This document shows, piece by piece, positions 1 to 12,265 of a stretch of DNA of 34,221 nucleotides. Each line of letters opens with the position of its first letter. The stretch's first letter is position 1. Under the pieces are notes generated by a model. That model was not told the origin of the DNA. It did no database searches and was given only the letters and a program-made list of their open reading frames with translations. Source of the stretch: a virus (taxonomy: Duplodnaviria; Caudoviricetes); the IMG/VR virus record IMGVR_UViG_3300033141_004964, positions 1 to 34,221 of that record. One strand, given 5' to 3'. The position numbers and the translations under genes are program-made.

Positions 1-14
1 GATGCGTTGCTGCT

Positions 15-114
15 GCTTCGGTCGCCCTCCGGGCTCCCTTCGCACCAGCAACGCTGGAAGGACCAGTTCAATGGTTACCTGTCAACAAAAGTGCGAAACT
101 TTCTGGACAGTACC
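15..114. mobile_element. Probable terminal segment of an insertion sequence (IS256-like inverted-repeat end)
   Basis: AAAAGTGCGAAACTTTCTGGACAGTACC at 87-114 resembles, from memory, IS256-family ends. It is preceded by a CTTCGGTCGCCCTCCGGGCTCCCTTCGC motif of the kind seen near IS ends. No transposase in the window. Confidence 0.35.
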
Positions 115-224
115 CACCGCAACAGATGGTTCCACGAAGCATCCCGGGGGGATCTGGATCAAGCCCGACATTTTGGCCCGGCTCCGGCAGCGTTTGTGGA
201 CCACGTCAGTAGCGGCTCGACCCT

Positions 225-533
225 TCACGGAATTACAGCTTGCCTTTGCCCTCCCTCCGGCAGGCCGGCAGCATCCCGCCACATTGCCTCGACTTCCTTG
301 GCCTGTTGGAGATTCTTCCTCAATCGCGCCTTTAGTGGGCCTATTCTCGCAGGATCATCGCCCTCGAGGTCCGAAAGGATGCTTTCAAGTAAACTACCTT
401 CAGCGGCAGCGACGATGATGGCCTGTTCGAAGCCTCGCGACCTCACGTGGTCTTTATAGATCAAGAAGCCGACAATCAGGGCCACATTCAACAGTAATGA
501 ACTCGCCGTAACTACTTTCATCGCTTTGCTCAT
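225..533 (-). CDS. Small membrane-anchored hypothetical protein (102 aa)
   Basis: N-terminal hydrophobic helix (VVTASSLLLNVALIVGFLIY) followed by a helical soluble domain; AAGGA RBS upstream. Confidence 0.65.
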   Translation of the reverse strand: MSKAMKVVTASSLLLNVALIVGFLIYKDHVRSRGFEQAIIVAAAEGSLLESILSDLEGDDPARIGPLKARLRKNLQQAKEVEAMWRDAAGLPEGGQRQAVIP

Positions 534-758
534 CGGTCATTTCCTTACCGGCCAGCTTGGTTGTTGCTGTACTTCCTTGCGATCCCTATTACGCTTGCGC
601 AGAATAGTACAGACCACGCCATTCCTGAATACATACACTCCCTCGTATTCCCAGGCAAGTGCCATCAACTTGGCCATGTTGGTCTCACCTCAGCACCATC
701 TAACTTCAGCCGATATACGAGCCACTCCCAACTATCCACGTTTGCCCGAGAGCATGCA

Positions 759-1859
759 TTAGAGGGGCAGCCTTGCCATCTTGGATCTCGGCTTCCCGCT
801 GATGTCAAAAGCACTCAGTGCCTCGTGTACCTGACGGGTCTTCAGAATATCCTCGAAGAAACTATGTCCGCCATCGCTGAGCACAACAACATCGAGCACA
901 GTCAATGCGCTGCTATCGGCCATACTTACTGGAGCATAGAAATGGTACGATAGGTCATCCTGTGCAATCCCAGGGACTTCCTTCACAAAGCAACTCTTAG
1001 CCAAATCATATATCTTGATTACTGGCAACCCATCCAGGATCGCATAGAGAAATACATATTTCGCAGTGGGGCATAGGCTTGCTGATGCGAAGGCATCCAT
1101 ATCATTCAACGGTATTCTGCGATCATCAACAATACGATTCGGCTTGGCGCGGCAGACATTGACTTCAATGCCCTGTGTGCTACGAGTTTGCTTTGTGAAG
1201 TGCAGCTCGTCTTGTCGGGTCGTAATACTACCGATTCGGTTGCACTGCTGGGGGCCGATCAGCGTGCGGATTGCCCCCGATGTGCAGTCAATCACCACAA
1301 TCGAATTGTCGTTGCCACACATACACACGGCGTTATCGCCATACCATGTCAGGCCACCATCCACGCGCACGTCTGTAAGTAACTGTCGTCCGCTGCCGCT
1401 CTCTTCCCCAATCCTAACAAGCTCTCGAACAGCTCTCGTGTCTACGTTGACTAGGTAAACCGATACTGTGGCCAATCTGGAAGCGCTATTCTTGTCGAGT
1501 GAGGTGGCGGCAAACGCAATGTGCTTCTCGTCAGGGGACCACGCTATGGAATGAATATCTGAGCCGCCACTCGTCGCGGACCATATAGCTGCAAACTCGG
1601 TGGCACTGTCATCCGAATTTGCATAGAGACCGACATCTCCCAGCGTCCCAGCCGCCACGGCGGAGAGTGTCCTGGGGCTGGAAAACGCGGCAGAAGTGGT
1701 TAGCGCCGTGTTGGGCTGGGGGAGCAATTGTGTGCCTAACGGCTTAGGGAGCGAAACGGGAGGAGTCACATCGCCCAGCGATAACTGCGACAAAGCCATA
1801 GCAGTGCCAGCAAAAGCCGCATTCTGAATGAATCTTCTTCTTGATATGCTTTCAGGCAT
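759..1859 (-). CDS. Tat-exported beta-propeller (TolB/WD40-like) protein
   Basis: Twin-arginine motif SRRRFI plus hydrophobic stretch and Pro/Thr linker; blade motifs SIAWSPDEKHIAF, GGLTWYGDNAV, SIVVIDCTSG, IKIYDLAK. Confidence 0.75.
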   Translation of the reverse strand: MPESISRRRFIQNAAFAGTAMALSQLSLGDVTPPVSLPKPLGTQLLPQPNTALTTSAAFSSPRTLSAVAAGTLGDVGLYANSDDSATEFAAIWSATSGGSDIHSIAWSPDEKHIAFAATSLDKNSASRLATVSVYLVNVDTRAVRELVRIGEESGSGRQLLTDVRVDGGLTWYGDNAVCMCGNDNSIVVIDCTSGAIRTLIGPQQCNRIGSITTRQDELHFTKQTRSTQGIEVNVCRAKPNRIVDDRRIPLNDMDAFASASLCPTAKYVFLYAILDGLPVIKIYDLAKSCFVKEVPGIAQDDLSYHFYAPVSMADSSALTVLDVVVLSDGGHSFFEDILKTRQVHEALSAFDISGKPRSKMARLPL

Positions 1860-1897
1860 TCTTCACCATACCTTTCCTATATTGTGATATATCCAAG

Positions 1898-2440
1898 CTA
1901 GCCTCCGCCTGAACAGCCATTGGCGACAGGACACGAAATGTCGAAGAGGCCACAGTCAGTATCACTTACGGAGCAAGTATTCGCCGTACACCAATCATCC
2001 TCTGTACAGGTATTCGTTCCGCAAGTATTATAGGAACATGAGTTTGTGCTACATCCGTCCGCATTTGCGCATATGTCAAAATTGCAGACATTCGTGTCAC
2101 ATGTATTGCCGCCAGTGCAAGAATTGCCGCTGATAGTACAATGGACCTCATTGTATCCAGTGCAGGTATGTCCATTTTGACAGGTGTTGAAATTGCAGAC
2201 ATTGCTGGTCTCACATACGTTGTTCTGAGTACAACTGTTCTCGTCACAATTGTCGCAGCCTGCATCACAACTCTCGCAGCCACAGGCTGCCGCTTCCCCG
2301 TTCAACGCAGCCACCACCCCTGCAGCACCAGCAACTGTCATGGACATTCGCTTCAGGAATCGCCTTCTGCTAATGCCCAATGATCTGAAGATCTCTGGAA
2401 GCTCATACGCTCTTCGACGCGGTGTTGTGTCCATCTGCAT
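1898..2440 (-). CDS. Tat-exported Cys-rich repeat peptide, putative radical-SAM substrate (RiPP-like precursor)
   Basis: GISRRRFLK Tat motif, AAA|C cleavage site, then a 128-aa core with 24 Cys mostly every 5-6 residues (N/D-x-C repeats); overlaps the end of the rSAM gene; GAGG RBS. Confidence 0.85.
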   Translation of the reverse strand: MQMDTTPRRRAYELPEIFRSLGISRRRFLKRMSMTVAGAAGVVAALNGEAAACGCESCDAGCDNCDENSCTQNNVCETSNVCNFNTCQNGHTCTGYNEVHCTISGNSCTGGNTCDTNVCNFDICANADGCSTNSCSYNTCGTNTCTEDDWCTANTCSVSDTDCGLFDISCPVANGCSGGG

Positions 2441-3704
2441 TATCCTCGTGATTTGCGGTACTGTCGTTATCCCGCTTACTCGCTAGACTAGGCTTCTGGT
2501 TGTGATAATACGCTTTCATGAACACGGGATTCTCCTCTGCTAGCAACGTATCATGGAACTCCTTAACCACATCCGCAGTCACTCTCATTACGTCACACGC
2601 TGTCGGATGCCGCCGCCAGATATTCCCCGTGTCTTCAAGGTTTTCGGCAGGGCAACCCCCTGAACAGAGATAGTGTGCAGGACATGCCCCACAATAGTGC
2701 ATTTCTTCCCCCTTCTGGCCCAGATCGTCAATGAAGCCTTTGCTCTCATAGTTGAAATCCCCGTCATATATTGATCCTAGCCTCCATTCGTATTGGTCTT
2801 CCCTGCACCACCGATGGCATGGCCAAATATCGCCGTTGACATCTATCAATACCATCCCTCGGCCCGCTCCACAAGAGGCGGATACTGAGGGTCGCGAGCC
2901 AGTACTGGCCAATTGTCTGCATCCCTCATCGAAGAATTTCAGTTTGACAAACTGCCCATCTCGGAATATACGGATGACCCGGAGCATGATAGCTCTAAAC
3001 TGTTCAGCAAACTCCGTTACCGACTTCTCATCCCATAGCGCAAACGCCCCTGGAACAAGCGCGATATCCCTGTATCCAAGGGCTAGAAGGTACTCGAAAC
3101 TCTCTGCTAGGTTCTCGACAGTATCGGGCAACACAGTGGATCTGGCGGTCGTGTTCGGCCGAACAGAGAGAATCCTGGGCAGGTTCCCGGCAAGTACATC
3201 CGAAGTCCCCCTTCCGTCAACAAAACGGCGGTGCCGATCCTGTACCCCTGGGCAACCGTCTATTGATGTATGGAAACCTAGGCCCCATTGTCTCCACAGA
3301 GACAGGATGTCTTCAGTAAGTATCGTGCCATTTGTTGTCATCCCAAAATGGATCTCTTTGCCATGCTGATAGGCCCTTCGCTTTGCAAACGGGACAAGCT
3401 CCCTTATCACACCAAAGCGCAGTAATGGCTCTCCGCCTATGAAGGTTGCTGTAATCTTGGGAGACTCGCCGCTTGCCAGAATAAGCCACACTATGGCATC
3501 TTGGGCCGTCTCAAGTGACATATGCTTGGTGCCCCTTTCCTTGAAGCAGTAGTCACAGGCAAGATTGCAGTCTACAGTAAGGTCTAGATCTATAGCAGTG
3601 ATCGTTACTCCCCCGATCGGCATGGACCCTGGATGGACCGTCTTCCGGCAGGCATGTGGCATGCATGTGGAGCCGGGAGTGCAGTTTCCTGTGGCATAGC
3701 TCAT
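2403..3704 (-). CDS. Radical SAM/SPASM peptide maturase (anSME/ranthipeptide-like)
   Basis: CNLACDYC cluster motif, FIGGEPLL, TTNGT, SIDG; SPASM CGAG...GDIWPC...CGACPAHYLCSGGC...C. Start set at ATG 3704 (TGATG overlap with upstream gene, GAGG RBS). Confidence 0.92.
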   Translation of the reverse strand: MSYATGNCTPGSTCMPHACRKTVHPGSMPIGGVTITAIDLDLTVDCNLACDYCFKERGTKHMSLETAQDAIVWLILASGESPKITATFIGGEPLLRFGVIRELVPFAKRRAYQHGKEIHFGMTTNGTILTEDILSLWRQWGLGFHTSIDGCPGVQDRHRRFVDGRGTSDVLAGNLPRILSVRPNTTARSTVLPDTVENLAESFEYLLALGYRDIALVPGAFALWDEKSVTEFAEQFRAIMLRVIRIFRDGQFVKLKFFDEGCRQLASTGSRPSVSASCGAGRGMVLIDVNGDIWPCHRWCREDQYEWRLGSIYDGDFNYESKGFIDDLGQKGEEMHYCGACPAHYLCSGGCPAENLEDTGNIWRRHPTACDVMRVTADVVKEFHDTLLAEENPVFMKAYYHNQKPSLASKRDNDSTANHEDNADGHNTASKSV

Positions 3705-4960
3705 CACATATCCTCGCCCAATGGCATTGATCGTTTGTGCACACAAGCCCGGAGATCCAAGCATTCACTGGCAACTCTCCGCAGGTACGCTTTCCGAGAT
3801 GAACACCACACACTACTGATGGAATGATACTGCTCCCGAGAGACGCTTGAGCAACTGTCCAAGCCGCCACATATATGCTTCCATGAGCAACTCCTACATC
3901 GACCATATAGCCGTGGCTGCCTGTGAGAAGAGAACACATTCGGGGCACCGGCACCGCTAGTGCTCTGCGGAGTATGTCTCAGTAGCGCTGTAAATGGGAA
4001 TGCACGAAACCGCAATATTCGCCCATCCCCTTCTACCAATGCGTGAATATGGTTCCTGGTTCCACAATGTGATATGCGATCTTCCATATCCTCAAAGGGC
4101 TCGTCCATGAACTCAGACAATGAATGATCAGCGTAGCAACCGTCCAATGCCGCCAGGAAACCGGTGCCGTCAATACGACCGTCATCGTCTGCCGGATTGA
4201 AGTATGGCGACATAAAGTACGGCAGCAACCCTATCCCAGATAGCTTGTTTGACACCAACGCGTTTCTCAGCACGTTCGCAACGCTTTCGGCATCCTCGCC
4301 AGACCAATAGTACAAGACAGGAACACGAAGCCCGTAGCTGCATGTTCTTGACAAGGTCCCCCCTTCTCTCCCGTCAAGACCTGTAGCATAACCCAGACGT
4401 GATCCCAGGATATATCTCAGTATGACCTTGTGCCTTACCAAGAAATCCATATGATCTGAGCTGGGGCACGAAAACGATGCGTCTATGAATACATTCGTGG
4501 TGATTCTGGCGCCATGGGGGTCCCCGTTTACACTGCAAAAAGTCTTTATCCACGCTATGACGCTATCCCACTCAAATGTATCTGGACCAGTATCGAGGAA
4601 GATCCGCAGTCTTGATATGTTGGTTGCATCGGAGGCCATACCCTTGATCGCCATGACGCTCTCTGGGCCAGAGAGGCACGAGCGCCGACAGTATAAACTA
4701 ACGCTTGCGCCATCCCTCCCCTTCCCGCCTGCCTTCCGGTATGGTACAGTAGTATTCTCTGATGCGCTCAGGCCTAGCTTGTGTTTCTCGACATTGCATG
4801 GCTGAAGTAATTCCATAGCCTCTAATTCGGTCAGCACTTCAGCATGCTTTGCGAATCGGTCGAGTACTGCTATCTGGCCAGACCGCAACGGAGCCACTGG
4901 GAGTCCAAGGGCTCGTTCCAGCTCATCAACTACGTCGTAACGGTCTGTATCCATGGCCAT
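3704..4960 (-). CDS. Degenerate radical SAM/SPASM-like protein (probable pseudo-enzyme, possible N-terminal RRE)
   Basis: Only CRRSC at the expected CxxxCxxC position; C-terminal CRSCSWKHICGGLDSC...WC is SPASM AuxII-like; translationally coupled to the intact rSAM. Confidence 0.65.
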   Translation of the reverse strand: MAMDTDRYDVVDELERALGLPVAPLRSGQIAVLDRFAKHAEVLTELEAMELLQPCNVEKHKLGLSASENTTVPYRKAGGKGRDGASVSLYCRRSCLSGPESVMAIKGMASDATNISRLRIFLDTGPDTFEWDSVIAWIKTFCSVNGDPHGARITTNVFIDASFSCPSSDHMDFLVRHKVILRYILGSRLGYATGLDGREGGTLSRTCSYGLRVPVLYYWSGEDAESVANVLRNALVSNKLSGIGLLPYFMSPYFNPADDDGRIDGTGFLAALDGCYADHSLSEFMDEPFEDMEDRISHCGTRNHIHALVEGDGRILRFRAFPFTALLRHTPQSTSGAGAPNVFSSHRQPRLYGRCRSCSWKHICGGLDSCSSVSREQYHSISSVWCSSRKAYLRRVASECLDLRACVHKRSMPLGEDM

Positions 4961-5185
4961 CTATGGTGTGTCGGGTATCGGCTCGGGAAGGTTAGACAGC
5001 CCTCCCTTAGGGTCCAGCCATACTCTCACCACATCCTTATAGGAGTGGCCCAACTCAACGTGGCCACCCGATCAACTCAACCAGATGCCGGTTGCGCCAA
5101 TTCCGCGACACCTTGGACAGGTACACCATGGGGCATTCGATACTGGCGACTCCTGCCTTCCACAGTTGGCATGATATAGCACTAT

Positions 5186-6679
5186 TTAGGAGCCATCGAT
5201 GGCTCCCACGAGAAACTTCTGCAGTCCCTGAGCCTTCAGCCAATCTAGTACGATCTTAGTGGCTGCTCCGTCATTGCCCAGAGCCCCTAGGGCACGAGCA
5301 AGATTGGAGATATCCTGAGGCTTCATAGCCTGCAAGTCATCATCCTTACCTACGGGGAACACTTCCAATAGCCTTCTTCCCCAAAGTTGACGTTCCTCCT
5401 CGTCGAGTCCGTCATGGTAGTACTTGGCAAATTGACTCCAACGATGGGTCCCAACTGATCCCGCAACTGAGTCATTCAGGAAGTATTTGCCGGTTATGTG
5501 TATGGCCACTCTCCTGCGCCCCGACGTAACCGCCTGTTCTGCCGGGTAGCCATACCCAAGTCTTCGACCAAGATCCGCAAGCTGGTCTACTGTCCAAGTC
5601 TTCCACGTGTCGCTATGGCCCGTCCAAGTAGCCAAGAACTCATTCCCATGCTGTTCGCCGAGTTCCCAGAGAACGTCCTGAATCGCTCGTGCTTCCTGAT
5701 ACCCCATGGCCCGAGTACCATAGGTCGTCCTTAACTTATTTCGCCAGCCTGCCAGAGCTGCCGCGGCAGTCGGGGCATTCTTCAAGGACGCCATCGCCCG
5801 CCCTAACGAAAGTGCTTTCTGGAAATCTTCCGGTTGAAGCTCACGGTTTATATGCGTCTCTATCCAAACAAACGCCAGACTCGCAGCCTCTTCCTTCGCC
5901 CCTAAGGTCGACATTGCCTCTGCAACTGGCCCAACACTGTCGATGGAGAGTTCCCCAACGTCACTGTCAGTGACACAGAATGCAGATCGCAGTTTATTGG
6001 CCCACGTGGCTCGCTCGCTTTGGGACAATCCTTCGGTGTAGTACTTCACAAATCGTGTCCAATGCTCGAGTCCGACCGATCTTACTGATGGGTCGTCGGA
6101 CATGTGGGTGGTCGCTATATGACTGGCCACCCGCCTCCTCCCCTGCGTAACTACGGGCTCAACCGGGAATCCCCACCCCAACATGCCGCCAAGCCCGACC
6201 AACTCCTCAAGAGTCCATGACTGCCACGATGTATGGTTGCCAGTCCACGCCGCAATGAATGCATTCCCGTGCTTCTCTCCCAGCCCCCAGAGCGCGCCCT
6301 GAATTCGCTTTGCCTCTTCATAGCCCATCTCCTTGCTACCGAAGCGAGATCGCAACTGAGTACGCCAATGCTCCCTGGTGGACAACTTCATGTCCTGGCC
6401 AAGGAACGTCACAAACTTCTCCCAGTTGTGCGCATCCACCATGTCCGTCGTGATTTCATCTGCAAGGAATCTGCAACTGATGTAGTCTGCAAGTAGCGTC
6501 CGCTGCTCGGAGGCGGCCTTGCCCTGATTGGCCAGTTGCTCAGATAGCACTGCGAGATCAACGGGGCCCATTGATGACCACTCAACAGGGCATTCAGCGG
6601 CCCGCGATATGGCCGCCGAAAGAGTCAGGGCCACAAGCCCCGCTACTACGCAGAGCCGCTTAATCATTCCGCCCATCAT
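5186..6679 (-). CDS. Secreted Trp-rich alpha-helical repeat protein (497 aa)
   Basis: Sec-type signal (KRLCVVAGLVALTLSAAISRA); internal duplication of ~200 aa (MGYEEAKRIQGALWGLGEKHGN vs MGYQEARAIQDVLWELGEQHGN; GRRRVASHI vs GRRRVAIHI). Confidence 0.8.
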   Translation of the reverse strand: MMGGMIKRLCVVAGLVALTLSAAISRAAECPVEWSSMGPVDLAVLSEQLANQGKAASEQRTLLADYISCRFLADEITTDMVDAHNWEKFVTFLGQDMKLSTREHWRTQLRSRFGSKEMGYEEAKRIQGALWGLGEKHGNAFIAAWTGNHTSWQSWTLEELVGLGGMLGWGFPVEPVVTQGRRRVASHIATTHMSDDPSVRSVGLEHWTRFVKYYTEGLSQSERATWANKLRSAFCVTDSDVGELSIDSVGPVAEAMSTLGAKEEAASLAFVWIETHINRELQPEDFQKALSLGRAMASLKNAPTAAAALAGWRNKLRTTYGTRAMGYQEARAIQDVLWELGEQHGNEFLATWTGHSDTWKTWTVDQLADLGRRLGYGYPAEQAVTSGRRRVAIHITGKYFLNDSVAGSVGTHRWSQFAKYYHDGLDEEERQLWGRRLLEVFPVGKDDDLQAMKPQDISNLARALGALGNDGAATKIVLDWLKAQGLQKFLVGAIDGS

Positions 6680-6793
6680 TCTTCCTTCTCCTACCCATAG
6701 AAATGACTGTCGCGCCCAATAGCTTACCGGACCGTATCAGCACGCATCTGAAGGGCCTGCCATACGGCTACCCAGACCCCGTTGACGATGCTC

Positions 6794-6822
6794 ACTCTAA
6801 TCTCCACCCCGACTTGTGTCAA
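6794..6822 (-). promoter_or_regulatory. Sigma70-type promoter of the rSAM operon
   Basis: TTGACA (6822-6817), 17-nt spacer, TAGAGT (6799-6794), ~115 nt upstream of ATG 6679. Confidence 0.7.
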
Positions 6823-6961
6823 GCGGATTCCGCCCTGATTCATTCCCAGTTTGCGTGGGCGATTTCCTTTCTCAGTTCGCGGAGGAGGCGGAAGAGTCCG
6901 GGGAGTCGGTCCATGAAGAGGAACTGTCCAATCGCGAAGAGGCCGTATTCATGGGGTCTAT

Positions 6962-6978
6962 AGTTGCCCCGGGCAACT
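6962..6978. promoter_or_regulatory. Perfect palindrome, candidate operator
   Basis: AGTTGCCC-C-GGGCAACT in the spacer between the phage tail end and the operon. Confidence 0.3.
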
Positions 6979-7245
6979 GGACATGGGCGACAGAGATGGT
7001 AACCGCACCTGCCGGGGCTGTCAAACGCGGACCGGATGCTCTCGACGGCAAACGTCAGCAGGAAAGGGCGACAGGTGTGGTCGCACCACACAGAGAAAAG
7101 AAGGCCCGGTCCGGGGGAGAGACCAGGCCAATTTCCGGCCAGGGAGGGGGAGCCCTAACCGTGGGTTGCAGCCTACCAGAAAAACGTGCTTCTACGCAAG
7201 GTCAAGGCTGACAAGAGTAGCTCGTGGCTGTTACCTTTCGGCGGA

Positions 7246-7452
7246 TTAATCGCCTGACCGATGAATGCAGACTTGGCAAATACCGGCGTCGACATCCCGG
7301 CCAGTGAGTTGGCAAAGACTTGGCTGGCCGCAGCAGTTGGGCACGAGATGCGGGCAGCGATCTGTGGCAGTTGCGCCGCGTCGTCTGCGCAGTTCCGCCA
7401 CCGTCCTCACAGCGTCTCCTGGCCCTTTGCCGAAGGCTCTCAATTTCGTCAT
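7246..7452 (-). CDS. Small Cys-rich phage protein (68 aa)
   Basis: ATGA overlap with the upstream gene; CPH...CCGQPSLC...CQVC. Confidence 0.6.
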   Translation of the reverse strand: MTKLRAFGKGPGDAVRTVAELRRRRGATATDRCPHLVPNCCGQPSLCQLTGRDVDAGICQVCIHRSGD

Positions 7453-8078
7453 AGCGTCACCGTCCAGTAGCCGCAGAAGCACGCGCTACCCGGGCTGGAG
7501 GCGTGCTCGTCGCACCAGCCGGGCGGGTAGGTGTTGCCGCTACAGTCCTTCATCACCAGGTCGAACGCCCCCGTCAGTTGCCCGCCCACGCACGAGACAT
7601 GTTCCGTCACGTCCTGCATGTCGGCCAGGCACGAACCGATGAAGCAGCTATCCGGGCAGCCCTCGCACGGGTCCACCAGGACGCTGGGGCCGGTGTAGTA
7701 CAGCCCCGCTTCGATCCGCACCCCGTCCGGCTTGCTCGCGTCGGTATAGCAGCCGATCCATAGCTTGTAGTAGAACGTCCACGTCTCCGGGTAGTATGGG
7801 TGGTCCACGAGCCGCCGCATTTCGTACAACCACTCGGTCCAGCCCGTCCCGTACCACTTCATGCAGAGGTGTTCGTACGTTCCGTCGGCCAGGAACTCGA
7901 CGTACCACCACGGAGCGTTGTCGTTGTAGTTCTCGATGTTGTCATCGTTCACCGACGGCGTGCCGACCCAATCGCGGCAGGCCTCGCAGCAGTTGCCCGC
8001 GATGGCGCAGTCGGTTGCCAACACACCACCGGTCGGACGTGTGAGGATAGCGACGTCGCCGGCCATGATCGGAGCCAT
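7449..8078 (-). CDS. Cys/aromatic-rich putative tail-tip or receptor-binding protein (209 aa)
   Basis: Start at ATG 8078 (TAATG overlap); NCCEAC near the N-terminus, many W/Y/C; last large gene of the tail operon. Confidence 0.65.
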   Translation of the reverse strand: MAPIMAGDVAILTRPTGGVLATDCAIAGNCCEACRDWVGTPSVNDDNIENYNDNAPWWYVEFLADGTYEHLCMKWYGTGWTEWLYEMRRLVDHPYYPETWTFYYKLWIGCYTDASKPDGVRIEAGLYYTGPSVLVDPCEGCPDSCFIGSCLADMQDVTEHVSCVGGQLTGAFDLVMKDCSGNTYPPGWCDEHASSPGSACFCGYWTVTL

Positions 8079-8872
8079 TACGTCACCTCGCACGGGCCGG
8101 TGCTGAACGCCACCGACCGCGTCTCTACCGATACGGCCACGAGCGCGCCCAGCGAATCGTAGGTCGGCGTGCGGATGAACTGGTAGACCGGATCGCCGCT
8201 CACGCCCGACCAGTACAGCCGCATGGGCATGAACTGCACGCCGTAGAATCCCGGCTCCTGGGCGTCGATGGCCCACTCTTCGGTGTCTGCCGTCTCGCCG
8301 CTGCCGCCAAGCACCTTGGGGTCGCCGGAGATACCTGCCCGAAGCGGCTCGCCCAGCCGGATCACAGCCCACTTCAGCCCCGTTCCGCTGTCCTTCCATA
8401 GGATCACCGCCGAACCGGACGCGCAGCTTGTCAGCACCGGCTGTCCGGCAGCGATGTCGGCGAACTGGTGGCCGGCGTCGGTGACGTTCACCACGGCCGG
8501 GCACACGCCCGCTGCGCAGGCCTTGCCGATCTCGCCCTCGGCGATGGGTTCCAGCAGAACGACAAACTTGCCCGCATGGCTGGCTGCGGGCGTCACGCCG
8601 ACTAACGCCACTTGGTTGGCAAAGCTGTCTGCGGCTTCGGACGGTGTGAAGATAGGCGAGTCGATTCCCAGGACGGTAAAGCGGGCGGCATCCGCGCCAC
8701 TGGCGTTCTTGACGGGCACGATGCCCGTCTGGCGGAACGCCTGCGTCGGCTTGGAGCCCGTTCCCTGCTGACGCTGTAGATAATCCCTGGCCGCGTCAAC
8801 GAAGGTGTTGAACGTGGCCGCAGGTATGTCCAACGGCTGGCCGGGGCGTACCTTCTTCAGGTGGTCACCCAT
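8078..8872 (-). CDS. Minor tail protein
   Basis: Second gene after tape measure; beta-rich composition; coupled to neighbours. Confidence 0.7.
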   Translation of the reverse strand: MGDHLKKVRPGQPLDIPAATFNTFVDAARDYLQRQQGTGSKPTQAFRQTGIVPVKNASGADAARFTVLGIDSPIFTPSEAADSFANQVALVGVTPAASHAGKFVVLLEPIAEGEIGKACAAGVCPAVVNVTDAGHQFADIAAGQPVLTSCASGSAVILWKDSGTGLKWAVIRLGEPLRAGISGDPKVLGGSGETADTEEWAIDAQEPGFYGVQFMPMRLYWSGVSGDPVYQFIRTPTYDSLGALVAVSVETRSVAFSTGPCEVT

Positions 8873-8875
8873 GGG

Positions 8876-9706
8876 TCACGTCCCTATCCCCAGACCCGAG
8901 AAGTCACCTTCCTCGTAGACCTTCTCGATGTAGACGGCCACGGGCTTCTTGACGATGGCCTTGGCGGCAGAGTCCTCTGCGTCGGCGTAGCGGACCCACA
9001 TGTACTCCCAGCCCTTCTTGTCGATTCCGCCGATGTCGCCGACCGTCAGGCCGGTGCGGTTCTCACTGGCCGCGAAGCGGAAGCTGATCTCCCAATCCTC
9101 GTCGCCTCGCTTCGATCCGGACGCGCCGAGGAACAGCACCTCGCCTGCGGCAAAGCCCTTGAACGACGCGTTGTTCACTCGGCCGGTGAGCGACCGCAGC
9201 GTTGACTTGTAGCCGCCCGTTACCACGCCATCGGCCAGGTAATGTGTCTCGGAGAAGTTGTAGACGGGCACTGTGATGTCCACGCCTTCGACAGAATCGT
9301 GCGTAACGCCGACAGCCCCCTTGAAGTCGGGTGCGGTCTTGCCGGCCGGGGCGTACTTGTTGACCGTGCTGATCGACTGCGTGATGTGCTGCGTCCCGCC
9401 GCCGGTGTCGAATGAGAAGGCCGAGTCGCCCGTATCCGGCGGCTCGCTGTCTTGCGAGGATCGGGCGTAGCGGACAGTTCCACTCCAGATGCAGGCGTCC
9501 GGGTTGTTGGCGTCCATCACGACCGGCTCGATCTGACTGGCCTGACGAGTGAGGTACTGGTAGCTCGAAGGTGCTTCGCCGAGCATGGCGTTCTTGGCGT
9601 CCACGTCGCTGGCCGTGCCTCTGACCTGGTAGCTGAACGTGACGGACAGGTTCGCGCCCGTCGTCCATTGCCTGCTGTCGGGGAGCTCTTCTACTGTGAT
9701 TGCCAT
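8876..9706 (-). CDS. Distal tail / tail-tip hub-like protein
   Basis: Immediately follows tape measure; beta-rich (GRVNNASFKGFAAGEVLFLGASG, WEISFRF, KKGWEYMWVRY). Confidence 0.7.
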   Translation of the reverse strand: MAITVEELPDSRQWTTGANLSVTFSYQVRGTASDVDAKNAMLGEAPSSYQYLTRQASQIEPVVMDANNPDACIWSGTVRYARSSQDSEPPDTGDSAFSFDTGGGTQHITQSISTVNKYAPAGKTAPDFKGAVGVTHDSVEGVDITVPVYNFSETHYLADGVVTGGYKSTLRSLTGRVNNASFKGFAAGEVLFLGASGSKRGDEDWEISFRFAASENRTGLTVGDIGGIDKKGWEYMWVRYADAEDSAAKAIVKKPVAVYIEKVYEEGDFSGLGIGT

Positions 9707-9716
9707 AGCTCGCGCC

Positions 9717-11501
9717 TTATGAGAACGTCAGGCCGCTCGTGTTCGCCTTGTCGAGCAGCTTCTTCGTGTTCTTGGCGGTTTCCTCGGTGGCCTTGGCCGT
9801 GCGGTCGGCGGAATCGCCGGATTGCAGGCCGAGAAGCGAGGCAGCATTGAAGGTGCCCGTCACGCCAATCTTTGCCGCTTGCTGCGATAGTTCCATGCCA
9901 CCCAGTTCGGCCGCCGTCTGAAGGCCCGACAAGTCCGGTGCCTTGATCTCGATTGCACCTTCCAGACCCAGCAACTTGCCCAGTGGTGTACCGCTCATCT
10001 TCTCGCGGAACTCCACGTCGTGTGCCTGCCAGTCCTTCGAGAGCTGCTCGCCGAGGGCGGCCACCCGGCCGGAGAGTTCCTTCTCAAGAGGACCGATCTG
10101 GCGCGCCGCGATCTTGGGCATCTCCTTGATTGCCGACTCGAAGCCTTCCAGCAGCGGCGTCCATTCGAAGTTCCATCCTTCGCCCTTCACGAAGCCGATG
10201 ATCGCATCCCACAGGGCCTTCAGGTTGCGGCCGATGTTGACGGCCACGGTCTTCGTGAATCGCCACATCGTGGTGAAGATGTCCCGCCAGTTCTCGGCGA
10301 ACCACTTCAGCGTCGCGGGGATCACCTCGACGAAGAAGTGCTTCACCTGGGATGCGAACCGCACGATGTTCAGCACGCCGGCCACAGCCGCGTACTCCAG
10401 CACCTGCCGCCAGTTCTTCACGGCGAAGACGACTGCCGATATGGCGGTGACTACCGCCCCCTTGAACCAGCCGAACGCCTTGCCCAGCCACTCGATGGCC
10501 TTGCCGCCCAAGTCGGTCGTGCCGTGCAGGACAGCACCGAGCGCGACCACCGCACCGATCACCAGCCCCAGAGGCGACAGGATGAAGCCCAGCACGGTAG
10601 CCAGGCCGCCGAGAACCGTTCCGGCAAGTGAAATGGCCGTGCCCAGCGCAGCCAGTGCGACGCCGCCGGCCACCACTATCGCCGCTACCTTCGCGATGGA
10701 CACCACTACCTGCCGGTTGGCCTCTATCCATGACTTGGCCTTGACGCCAATGGACGTAAGGATGCCAGCTAGCTGCTGAAGCGCCGGGGCCAGCGCGGCT
10801 CCCACTTGGAAGACGCCCATCTTGACGACCTTCCAGAGGGCGTCCATTGCGTCGGTGAAGTCTTCTGCGGCCTTGGCGTCCTCGCCGGACATCGTCAGCC
10901 CAAGCGCCCGGGCCTGCTGCTGAAGTTCCTCGATGCCGGCGGCTCCGCTCGCGAACATCGGCAGCAGGTTCGTGCCCGTCCTGCCGAACAGCGTCATGGC
11001 GATGGCCGCGGCCTTCGTGGGATCGGAGATCTGCGAGATCGCGTCGGCCAGCTTCTTGAACTGCTGCTCGGGAGATAGGCCTTCGAGATCCTCGAACGTC
11101 AGGCCCAGGTCGGCGAGGGCATCGACGGCCGTGGACATGCCCCGCCCGGCGTCGTAGATGCTCCGCTGCATCCGGCGAAAGCCGGTCTCCAGCGCCTCGA
11201 TGGACGTTCCGGACTGGCTGGCGGCGTACTTCAGCTCCGAAAGCGACTCGACAGACAGGCCGGTCCGCCTGGCCATCTTGGCAACCTGATCGCCCATGGA
11301 GCTGAACGCCTTGGCCGCCCCGAGCATGGGCGCAAGCACGGCCGTGCCGAGACCGGCCATCTTCAGGCCCATGTTGCGGACGCTCGCGCCGAACGCCTTG
11401 AGCTTCCTCTCCGCCGCCCTCAGCCCGCGCACAAGCTTGCTGTCGTCGGCGAACAGCTCGACGAACGCACGACCGGCTCGGATTGCGTTAGAGGATGTCA
11501 C
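9717..11501 (-). CDS. Tail tape measure protein
   Basis: AIRAGRAFVELFADDSKL N-terminus; Ala/Gly-rich helical repeats; central hydrophobic segment. GTG 11501 with AGGAG RBS is the preferred start. Confidence 0.9.
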   Translation of the reverse strand: MTSSNAIRAGRAFVELFADDSKLVRGLRAAERKLKAFGASVRNMGLKMAGLGTAVLAPMLGAAKAFSSMGDQVAKMARRTGLSVESLSELKYAASQSGTSIEALETGFRRMQRSIYDAGRGMSTAVDALADLGLTFEDLEGLSPEQQFKKLADAISQISDPTKAAAIAMTLFGRTGTNLLPMFASGAAGIEELQQQARALGLTMSGEDAKAAEDFTDAMDALWKVVKMGVFQVGAALAPALQQLAGILTSIGVKAKSWIEANRQVVVSIAKVAAIVVAGGVALAALGTAISLAGTVLGGLATVLGFILSPLGLVIGAVVALGAVLHGTTDLGGKAIEWLGKAFGWFKGAVVTAISAVVFAVKNWRQVLEYAAVAGVLNIVRFASQVKHFFVEVIPATLKWFAENWRDIFTTMWRFTKTVAVNIGRNLKALWDAIIGFVKGEGWNFEWTPLLEGFESAIKEMPKIAARQIGPLEKELSGRVAALGEQLSKDWQAHDVEFREKMSGTPLGKLLGLEGAIEIKAPDLSGLQTAAELGGMELSQQAAKIGVTGTFNAASLLGLQSGDSADRTAKATEETAKNTKKLLDKANTSGLTFS

Positions 11502-11584
11502 TTGAGCGGCTCCTGCACGCGAGATGCTTCCACGCGACAAATGGGTGTGGTACGCTTGCTTAACGAAGCCCGAGGTCCTGCGCT

Positions 11585-12265
11585 ATGAACTACAGACAAG
11601 AGGTCCGCCGCATCTCTTCGAAGTGTCGGGCCAGCCTCGACCTCAGTCGGACCGGCGAAGACTTGGCACATCTGCACTACCCCTGCATCCCTCTCTGCAT
11701 CATTGACGCCGTCTTCTCCATCAATGCGCGAGCGCAAGCTACGGCAAACGTGATTGAACGGTACCGGCGACACGCGGGGATTGGCAGCAGCCGTGAGCAC
11801 ACGGTTCAGCAGTTCATAGAAACCGTAGATGCAGCTGGTGGTGCGGAGCGGTTTGCCTCGGAGGTATTGCACAACCGCCAGCGAACCAGCCCGAGGGGAG
11901 GAATACTCAAGGCAGAAGTTGCTTTGATGTACGGTCATGTTCTAACGGAGTTCCACGTCAACCGTCGCAGAGACATTCCCAAGATCATCGACAGCGACAG
12001 ATTCTCACGGCGTATCAGGCTTCTCCCTGGGCAAGGCGTGTCCTCGGATTTCTTCCTGATGATGTTGGGCCGCGAGGATCTGGTGAAGCCGGATCGCATG
12101 GTTGCCAGGTTTGTGTCAGACTGTCTCGACAGCAAACGCGTCGCTCCCGTCATGGCGGCCCACCTCCTTGCAGAGGCAGCCAGAGATCTGCAACACGACC
12201 ATCCGCACATGACACCCCGTCTCCTGGACTGGCTTGTGTGGGACTACCAGAGCGATTCTGGCTAG
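11585..12265 (+). CDS. HhH-GPD-like (DNA glycosylase fold) moron protein
   Basis: LCIIDAVFSI, NRQRTSPRGGILKAE, HhH-like LPGQG, KPDRMV (catalytic Asp position), LDWLVWDYQ; opposite strand to the tail operon. Confidence 0.65.
   Translation: MNYRQEVRRISSKCRASLDLSRTGEDLAHLHYPCIPLCIIDAVFSINARAQATANVIERYRRHAGIGSSREHTVQQFIETVDAAGGAERFASEVLHNRQRTSPRGGILKAEVALMYGHVLTEFHVNRRRDIPKIIDSDRFSRRIRLLPGQGVSSDFFLMMLGREDLVKPDRMVARFVSDCLDSKRVAPVMAAHLLAEAARDLQHDHPHMTPRLLDWLVWDYQSDSG

Follow-up and report, generated by a model that had tools for sequence, protein, structure and literature searches.

The 34,221 nt analyzed here (the window; the whole of IMG/VR virus record IMGVR_UViG_3300033141_004964, a Caudoviricetes virus) carry on their minus strand a cassette that, judged by sequence comparison, is a real, conserved and uncharacterised three-gene system, accompanied by a clade-specific beta-propeller gene and located in this instance on a prophage. 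The explanation that best accounts for the cassette as a whole, and which we consider reasonably probable, is that a radical S-adenosylmethionine (rSAM) enzyme staples cysteines of a precursor to downstream Asx (Asn or Asp) residues, that an inactive twin of the enzyme grips the precursor leader, that export of the product takes the route of twin-arginine translocation (Tat), and that a temperate phage carries the cassette as accessory cargo. A first-pass annotation of the window had described five co-oriented genes, the middle three overlapping, as a candidate Tat-exported rSAM crosslinked peptide system. All five open reading frames (ORFs) are present, the overlaps are seen, and both proposed Tat signals score above the TIGR01409 cut-off (19.5 and 17.3 versus 16.7 bits). 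The three genes that carry the argument are the following, where RRE denotes the recognition element of peptides that are ribosomally made and then modified post-translationally (RiPPs):

3704..4960, minus strand: dead rSAM/SPASM partner, 418 aa, with an RRE-like N-terminal domain and a barrel without CxxxCxxC.
2403..3704, minus strand: intact rSAM/SPASM enzyme of probable PapB/QhpD/CteB type, without an RRE of its own; the longest ORF extends to 3764 (453 aa).
1898..2440, minus strand: precursor, 180 aa with exactly 24 Cys, predicted to comprise a twin-arginine leader and a Cys-repeat core; start at 2440 or 2434.

About 95 relatives of the rSAM enzyme, at 43-65% identity, were found among the matches listed, and with the 91 sequences that were aligned, loci were retrieved from metagenomes (51), genomes (19) and viruses (22). 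Of the 71 loci numbered L005 to L075, 14 with a partial rSAM were removed, and the remaining 57 fall into 43 clusters at 95% identity, 21 of which are well flanked, with at least 2.5 kb on each side. The dead partner adjoins the rSAM in 20 of these 21 clusters. As the first-pass annotation had suggested for a neighborhood check, a Cys-rich Tat precursor recurs beside the rSAM homologs: 16 clusters have a precursor of the window type, and of the five without it, L042, L048, L068 and L071 make up a sister branch whose Cys repeats follow a Tat leader, are spaced as CXXX or in mixed fashion and hold up to 144 Cys. On these neighborhoods the conserved core is three genes (rSAM, dead partner and twin-arginine precursor), and the proposal of a five-gene system was not upheld, the 497-aa gene at the start of the cassette being without a relative and the propeller limited to one branch. 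The sister branch, found at L068 5139-7124, L071 6809-7834, L048 about 4245-4679 and L042 6068-6346, includes in L068 a CXXX-type repeat protein of 661 aa and 144 Cys with a Tat leader; its enzymes have Phe at active-site position 2, an extra TIGR04119-like domain is fused to the partner in L068 and to the rSAM in L071, and L042 has two intact rSAMs.

Named carriers belong to the Planctomycetota and Verrucomicrobiota, with single partial matches in three other phyla, and the system is rare. Among 401 Planctomycetota genomes the partner profile matched strongly in the seed genome and weakly in four others, three of these weak matches being also strong to the rSAM profile and the fourth a fragment. 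The present phage is the only close member among the 22 viral loci, and searches of GenBank phages and plasmids returned distant rSAMs only. A description of the cassette was not found in the literature searched, where coverage of subscription papers is thin, nor did term searches of the supplements of PMC13692751 (three files) and PMC10288494 (one file) return matching precursor rows. In the vicinity of several loci there are integrases, a relaxase, IS66 and a recombinase. In the branch of the window the gene order is partner, rSAM, precursor, propeller, and one 793-aa database protein (P0088; six member sequences, two contigs) fuses a partner N-terminal half to an rSAM C-terminal half. At L070 (12433-15348) three precursor copies stand in tandem, and behind each come a small membrane-anchored protein and partly duplicated stretches of the partner end.

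A regular register is seen in the precursor, whose leader of about 50 aa with an AxA-type cleavage site is followed by a 128-aa core of C-x2-3-[N/D]-x repeats. A search with the single sequence found one relative, and a profile was needed to reach the others. The register of the repeats was assessed in 31 cores with 12-31 Cys per chain, comprising 660 Cys and 629 Cys intervals. Cys spacing is irregular (5, 6 or 7), mostly 5 (177 intervals) or 6 (291), with a spacing of 4 in 20 of 629; an Asn or Asp stands at +3 in 175 of the 177 five-residue intervals and at +4 in 276 of the 291 six-residue intervals, in both cases two residues before the next Cys. Overall the Asx register is kept in 513 of 629 intervals, against 173 +/- 10 in shuffles, and independent library homologs show the same register (441/472 and 775/842). 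The acceptor positions are about 70% Asn and 25-29% Asp, and Glu is found at 0 of 468. The register is compatible with rings of either polarity, and the ends of the repeat arrays bear on the choice: an N, D or E follows the last Cys at +3 or +4 in 20 of 29 precursors (9.1 expected) and in 45 of 77 further homologs (22.6 expected), while Asx at -2 before the first Cys is not in excess (1/31 and 9/81). This test drew on 81 of 84 non-redundant homologs, some of them possibly partial genes, and the window precursor, whose last Cys is followed by Ser-Gly-Gly-Gly, is an exception to the pattern. Because N, D or E is in excess after the last Cys and Asx is not in excess before the first, the polarity by this end test is Cys before acceptor, as in PapB, QhpD and CrpC; the opposite, Asx-before-Cys (NxC) polarity is disfavored. 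Serial Cys-to-Asx thioether rings are favored over disulfides, since an N, D or E also follows the last Cys; the Cys count is odd in 18 of the 31 precursors. AlphaFold2, given the 31 sequences, produced no fold for the core, the predicted score of the local distance difference test (pLDDT) being below 50 over most of residues 46-178. Identity with a methylamine dehydrogenase light chain was rejected, having as its source an Atlas feature match of 0.89, below the bar of the tool. CefA matches were weak in five of 31 precursors (best E 0.0011), with none for the window precursor.

The enzyme is likely a thioether-forming rSAM of the PapB/QhpD/CteB type. Its best NCBIfam matches are all thioether formers (PapB 248, Nif11-type 214, QhpD 194 and CteB 156 bits), and its closest solved relative is CteB (E 7.5e-50). 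No curated family was reached at its cut-off, neither PapB (NF047865; 247.9 versus 340 bits), QhpD (193.5 versus 453), TIGR04115 (CXXX rSAM; 113.8 versus 350), CefB (63.2 versus 600) nor Crp (TIGR04463; 54.2 versus 525), so that the enzyme came through profile checks against the ranthipeptide, CXXX-repeat and Cef models proposed in the first-pass annotation, as well as those of PapB and QhpD, without a match at cut-off. CxxxCxxC and a seven-Cys SPASM pattern are invariant in 91 of 91 sequences, the latter pattern being reported for QhpD, CteB and CrpC (PMC10352776, PMC13692751). Six residues proximal to the active site (F, M/I/L, T, S, H, R) agree at four positions with those of CteB (F, F, T, S, H, Q). 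Positions 5 and 6, a His-Arg after the AuxI Cys in 90 of 91 sequences, align with the His-Arg of QhpD, the CteB pair being His-Gln (PMC10288494). PapB cannot do without Arg372, which is presumed to lie close to the carboxylate of its acceptor (PMC9413430), and by analogy the Arg of this family may be its equivalent. Position 2, at which the family also departs from CteB, is Met, Ile or Leu in 91 of 91, whereas QhpD, CteB and the Glu-rich CXXX branch have Phe there, a swap that hints at a changed acceptor preference. The earlier proposal of a thioether-type rSAM with a cognate Cys-repeat substrate is supported indirectly, by the NCBIfam ranking, the seven-Cys SPASM and the co-occurrence of the genes. 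The rSAM start is most likely at 3704, giving 433 aa, because an SD-like (Shine-Dalgarno-like) sequence is present, the ATG shares one base with the partner stop, and the database protein P0007 is of equal length. From there CxxxCxxC begins 45 residues into the protein (family median 71, QhpD 111), which would leave no room for a full RRE.

Substrate recognition may instead fall to the partner, which the first-pass annotation had called a degenerate rSAM/SPASM, aptly so: CxxxCxxC and GGEP are found in 0 of 34 partners, and the model (pLDDT 87) has an rSAM/SPASM fold matching anSME, SuiB, ChlB and CteB. An AuxII-like Cys motif is kept in 27 of 34, and four SPASM Cys are retained (C355, C358, C364, C386). 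Residues 18-402, including the N-terminal domain, align with CteB (Z 15.0, root mean square deviation 4.7, 331 residues aligned); the modeled N-terminus, consisting of a helix at 5-18, three strands and helices at 45-51 and 54-68, aligns with that of CteB, with no PqqD-type Pfam match in this region. TIGR04119 at E 0.01 matched 0 of 34 partners as aligned. One three-chain prediction was run with the leader, the partner and the rSAM, the last represented by P0007 as cluster representative. The leader received a complex score of 0.86, against 0.02 for the best of three controls, and with the partner exchanged the score fell to 0.00. Of solved pairs, 116 of 157 reach the mark of the tool, and of mismatched pairs 2 of 215, rates that are only rough for a three-chain case. 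Leader pLDDT was at least 59, and the runs shared at least 81% of contacts. The predicted leader contacts fall mostly outside the RRE-like domain; the surest ones run from leader residues 21-30, which hold the twin-arginine motif, to partner residues 279-293 and 396-403, and the conserved N-terminal arm of the rSAM also contacts the leader. Partner position 283, closest to the second Arg, is D or E in 32 of 34 sequences and lies five residues from the sole invariant residue, P288. The partner is predicted, with support from these controls, to bind the twin-arginine leader, suggesting that the export signal doubles as a RiPP leader.

In the 31 precursors the leader motif has its first Arg in 31, its second in 29 and a Phe in 26, and the precursor is likely a Tat substrate, as the first-pass annotation had supposed. 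The predicted interface is centered on the same motif and could alone explain its conservation, and it is conceivable that the twin arginines are a mere recognition tag for the partner, the product being no Tat substrate or being cut to short peptides by host proteases; S41 or S9 peptidases do lie near a few loci (L022, L032, L070). We regard this as very unlikely, given that a hydrophobic stretch and an AxA-type site follow the motif in the precursor alignment, that the window leader is above the TIGR01409 cut-off (although only five of 31 members match this model at E 0.05), that the neighboring propeller has a Tat motif in seven of seven near relatives, and that no conserved peptidase was found near the loci. 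TatC was present in five of five carrier genomes tested. The first-pass annotation had also noted the lack of an ABC exporter, and a motif screen of 122 neighboring proteins from 22 loci agreed, finding an ABC signature in none, one relaxase apart.

Several points weigh against serial stapling with Tat export as set out here. The family sequences are related to each other, and the counts are not independent; L064 has enzyme and partner without a precursor in the locus or in its incomplete genome; and most other branches lack the propeller, its narrow profile matching in 3 of 21 clusters. The lone three-chain prediction lies outside the calibration of the tool, and P0007 differs from the window rSAM by at least one residue. 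As to the chemistry, PapB and QhpD use Asp or Glu, a conserved Arg being thought to read the carboxylate (PMC9413430), so that the Asn positions, about 70% of the candidate acceptors, may be unmodified; only 309 of 629 intervals hold Asp or Glu. Stapling could accordingly be partial, with only the Cys-Asp/Glu pairs linked and the other Cys forming disulfides or binding metal after export, as the family Arg resembles that of carboxylate-reading enzymes (PMC9413430), Asp occupies 25-29% of acceptor positions, and CrpA was incompletely modified in a heterologous host (PMC13692751). This seems unlikely in view of the interchange of Asn and Asp at one fixed position from which Glu is excluded and of the Met, Ile or Leu at active-site position 2, with its hint of a changed acceptor preference.

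The remaining objection concerns the repeat itself. The precursor profile also matches 43 large proteins (best 149 listed), Dicty_CTDC repeats occur in seven of eight such proteins scanned, and these carry the N/D-x-C motif at lower frequency (39% and 60%). CTDC repeats are generally regarded as disulfide repeats. These cross-matches, together with low-confidence solenoid look-alikes of the Atlas model (pLDDT 0.39), would fit a CTDC-like disulfide or metal-binding repeat on which the two rSAM proteins would carry out cofactor loading or some modification other than thioethers, such as Asn C-alpha chemistry. Speaking against it, Dicty_CTDC (PF00526) at E 0.1 matches 0 of 31 precursors, Cys counts are often odd and spacing irregular, Asx is retained after the last Cys, and the enzyme has a seven-Cys SPASM with an open site and is not of the eight-Cys anSME type. 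Tat substrates, moreover, fold in the cytoplasm, where disulfides normally do not form. We hold this alternative to be decidedly unlikely, and return to thioether stapling for the comparison with known systems.

The cassette appears to work like QhpD/QhpC and CrpC/CrpA, yet on the tests above it belongs to neither of these and falls outside the PapB, CXXX and Cef families as well. The qhp system makes Cys-to-Asx thioethers in a cytoplasm-made protein subunit (PMC7876137), as predicted here; its locus (L097) has the same order of secreted protein, rSAM, cross-linked subunit and propeller, and QhpD is 27% identical to the window-family rSAM, with the His-Arg pair aligned. Unlike qhp, the window cassette lacks the dihaem QhpA, QhpG, the QhpE protease and the QhpF ABC exporter, and has about 20 candidate links where QhpC has three, along with a Tat leader and a dead partner; a quinone of the cysteine tryptophylquinone type is not expected, because Trp occurs in only 14 of 31 cores. 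CrpC of Methanococcus voltae likewise forms ranthionines on a large Cys-repeat protein, CrpA, with Cys before the acceptor and a seven-Cys SPASM, but belongs to TIGR04463, has its own RRE and acts on a 17-residue repeat, and the available part of the article mentions no Tat signal or dead partner (PMC13692751). PapB, the best-scoring family, fully accepts 1-5 intervening residues, a range that includes the CX2-3-Asx spacing (PMC9413430), whereas the freyrasin system PapB/PapA differs from the present one, in which the enzyme has no RRE, acceptors are dominated by Asn, export is predicted to use Tat and chains hold 12-31 Cys. The CXXX system (TIGR04115 with TIGR04119), compared by models only, also pairs an rSAM with a motif-less SPASM partner and a Cys-repeat target, and in the distant sister branch (L068, L071, L042) Tat leaders and CXXX repeats occur together with weak matches to TIGR04119/TIGR04117; the repeat of the window type is five to six residues with Asn/Asp, not four. 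NxxcB offers a precedent for Asn as beta-acceptor of a thioether (PMC9389541), though on one ring of a short streptococcal peptide, NxxcA, and with a motif name that places Asn before Cys, the opposite polarity; nothing on Asn was found in the available part of PMC10739248. TorD-type redox enzyme maturation proteins bind and shield twin-arginine signals during maturation in the cytoplasm (PMC8428690), the predicted binder here being a dead rSAM/SPASM fold unrelated to TorD. RiPP precursor signal peptides are known for the Sec and lipoprotein routes, with Tat unmentioned in the available part of PMC13056109.

The mechanism proposed starts from what is seen in the sequence, the three-gene core and the near one-to-one Cys:Asx pattern. 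The dead partner and the N-terminal arm of the enzyme would bind leader residues 11-36, centered on S-R-R-R-F, the partner supplying substrate recognition for an enzyme without an RRE. By analogy with known enzymes, a SAM-derived radical would abstract at the Asx C-beta, and the C-S bond would form at the open AuxI site, linking each Cys to the beta-carbon of an Asn or Asp three or four residues downstream; about twenty such links would give a string of small, non-overlapping rings with one residue between them. The bound partner, as in TorD-type chaperones, would hide the signal from TatC until release, and signal peptidase I would cut off the leader after Tat export; since it removes the leader, a dedicated peptidase or ABC exporter would be unneeded. 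In the branch of the window, gene order weakly suggests that the product, which would be rigid and redox-proof, forms a small subunit on the propeller exported with it, in parallel to QhpC on QhpB minus the quinone cofactor, and a binding or envelope-structural role would fit better than an antibiotic. In a bolder version, which we put forward tentatively, the dead twin is a repurposed Tat proofreading chaperone that grips the twin-arginine signal as RiPP leader and passes the chain through the active enzyme for at least 20 serial Cys-Asn/Asp staples, so licensing the export of a thioether-rigidified protein polymer; in anoxic planctomycetes this polymer would stand in for disulfides, and mobile elements, a prophage among them, would spread the system.

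The window, a virus record, encodes portal, capsid, terminase, tape measure and replication functions, and the cassette sits after the last tail gene; that the window is a prophage went unmentioned in the first-pass annotation. With a GC content at third codon positions of 0.51-0.60, against 0.74-0.86 in four phage genes, it is compositionally foreign, low-GC cargo of the phage. This phage is also represented by a longer record (L001, G001), which is identical across window positions 115-3299 and ends with a serine-recombinase-like ORF, identified by eye, and a tRNA-Asn. This tRNA-Asn (L004 12250-12323) and a 9-bp copy of its 3' end (L003 757-765; G001 757) delimit a prophage some 41.5 kb long, and TauE is encoded outside its left end; because the copy stands just beyond the cassette, the latter is likely inside the prophage ends. 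Among 80 related phage loci only the present phage carries the cassette, many of the contigs stopping soon after the tail gene. Of 301 genomes from the class to which a Sedimentisphaerales carrier belongs, 84 have the tail gene, and from this we infer that the host is likely a member of the Phycisphaerae. Two close phage relatives (L105 13443-20315, L106 13319-18506) have unrelated lower-GC genes in the post-tail position, a variable cargo slot. Window positions 1-114 differ from the otherwise identical G001 and were not found in its right-end region; their junction has what we take to be a resemblance to an insertion-sequence end. The last large tail-region ORF (7449-8504) has a Cys-rich C-terminal part.

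The other features of the locus are the following:

7103..7129, minus strand: tail-side terminator-like hairpin, 10 pairs and a T-tract, at the end of the phage tail genes and upstream of the cassette.
6794..6822, minus strand: candidate sigma-70-like promoter, 10 of 12 consensus matches.
5186..6679, minus strand: 497-aa protein, helical in its model, with a Sec-like N-terminus and a two-copy internal repeat.
759..1859, minus strand: Tat-signal beta-propeller-like protein by profile matches, 366 aa, directly 3' of the precursor.
225..533, minus strand: small co-oriented ORF, 102 aa, hydrophobic N-terminus; at most a candidate member of the cassette.

The first-pass annotation had placed one promoter before all five genes. 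The site is well placed behind the terminator-like hairpin, but the scan found five promoter-like sites where shuffles give 5.8 by chance, and a single five-gene transcript is only putative, as a 226-nt gap separates the 497-aa gene from the partner gene. Terminator-like sites are likewise at chance level (5 versus 5.5), position being the sole support for that at 7103-7129. The propeller, whose identity comes from profile matches to WD40/TolB chains and not from a fold prediction, directly follows the precursor in the window and in L005-L008, L039, L056, L058 and L184, and weakly in L062; on this neighborhood evidence it is a constant of the window's branch and not a family-wide part. At L056 (4255-4908) a very Cys-rich 217-aa ORF lies downstream of it. 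The internal repeat of the 497-aa protein spans 173 aa at 41% identity, and its model returned generic helical-repeat look-alikes only; it has no Pfam, NCBIfam or PHROG match and no homolog at 0.55-1.75 times its length, and in the nearest loci its place is taken by TPR proteins. Another exported family, A5 (about 340 aa, with an N-terminal signal and a C-terminal hydrophobic segment; L014 2014-3024, L022 6787-7821 and 18 more loci), occurs in 10 of 21 clusters, partly by construction of its profile, usually between precursor and rSAM in a Verrucomicrobiota-rich branch; nine members scanned had no Pfam match, and no clear solved relative was found. In four clusters (L022 at 2775-12010, L026, L027, L032) the core has an AraC regulator and a Wzy_C (O-antigen ligase-like) gene at its flanks, and three of these clusters also have an S41 peptidase-Ig fusion; L011, L064 and L067 have a PMT_2 glycosyltransferase near the core. 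These neighbors hint at envelope attachment or glycosylation.

By analogy, the chemistry of the cassette is likely an extension of known ranthionine formation, and its new elements are likely the serial Cys-Asn rings, the Tat export and a dead rSAM predicted to read an export signal. Protein-scale thioether stapling is known from few cases, QhpC with three links and CrpA, partly mapped; if the present reading is true, it would add serial Cys-Asn rings in chains of 12-31 Cys and an enzyme of interest for multi-ring peptide engineering. The role of motif-less rSAM/SPASM partners becomes addressable, the model naming leader residues R23 and R24, partner residue E283 and the helix at 396-403. Carriage on a prophage shows that such a cassette can move between hosts, and should one sequence act as both signal peptide and leader, a single recognition event would couple modification to Tat quality control.

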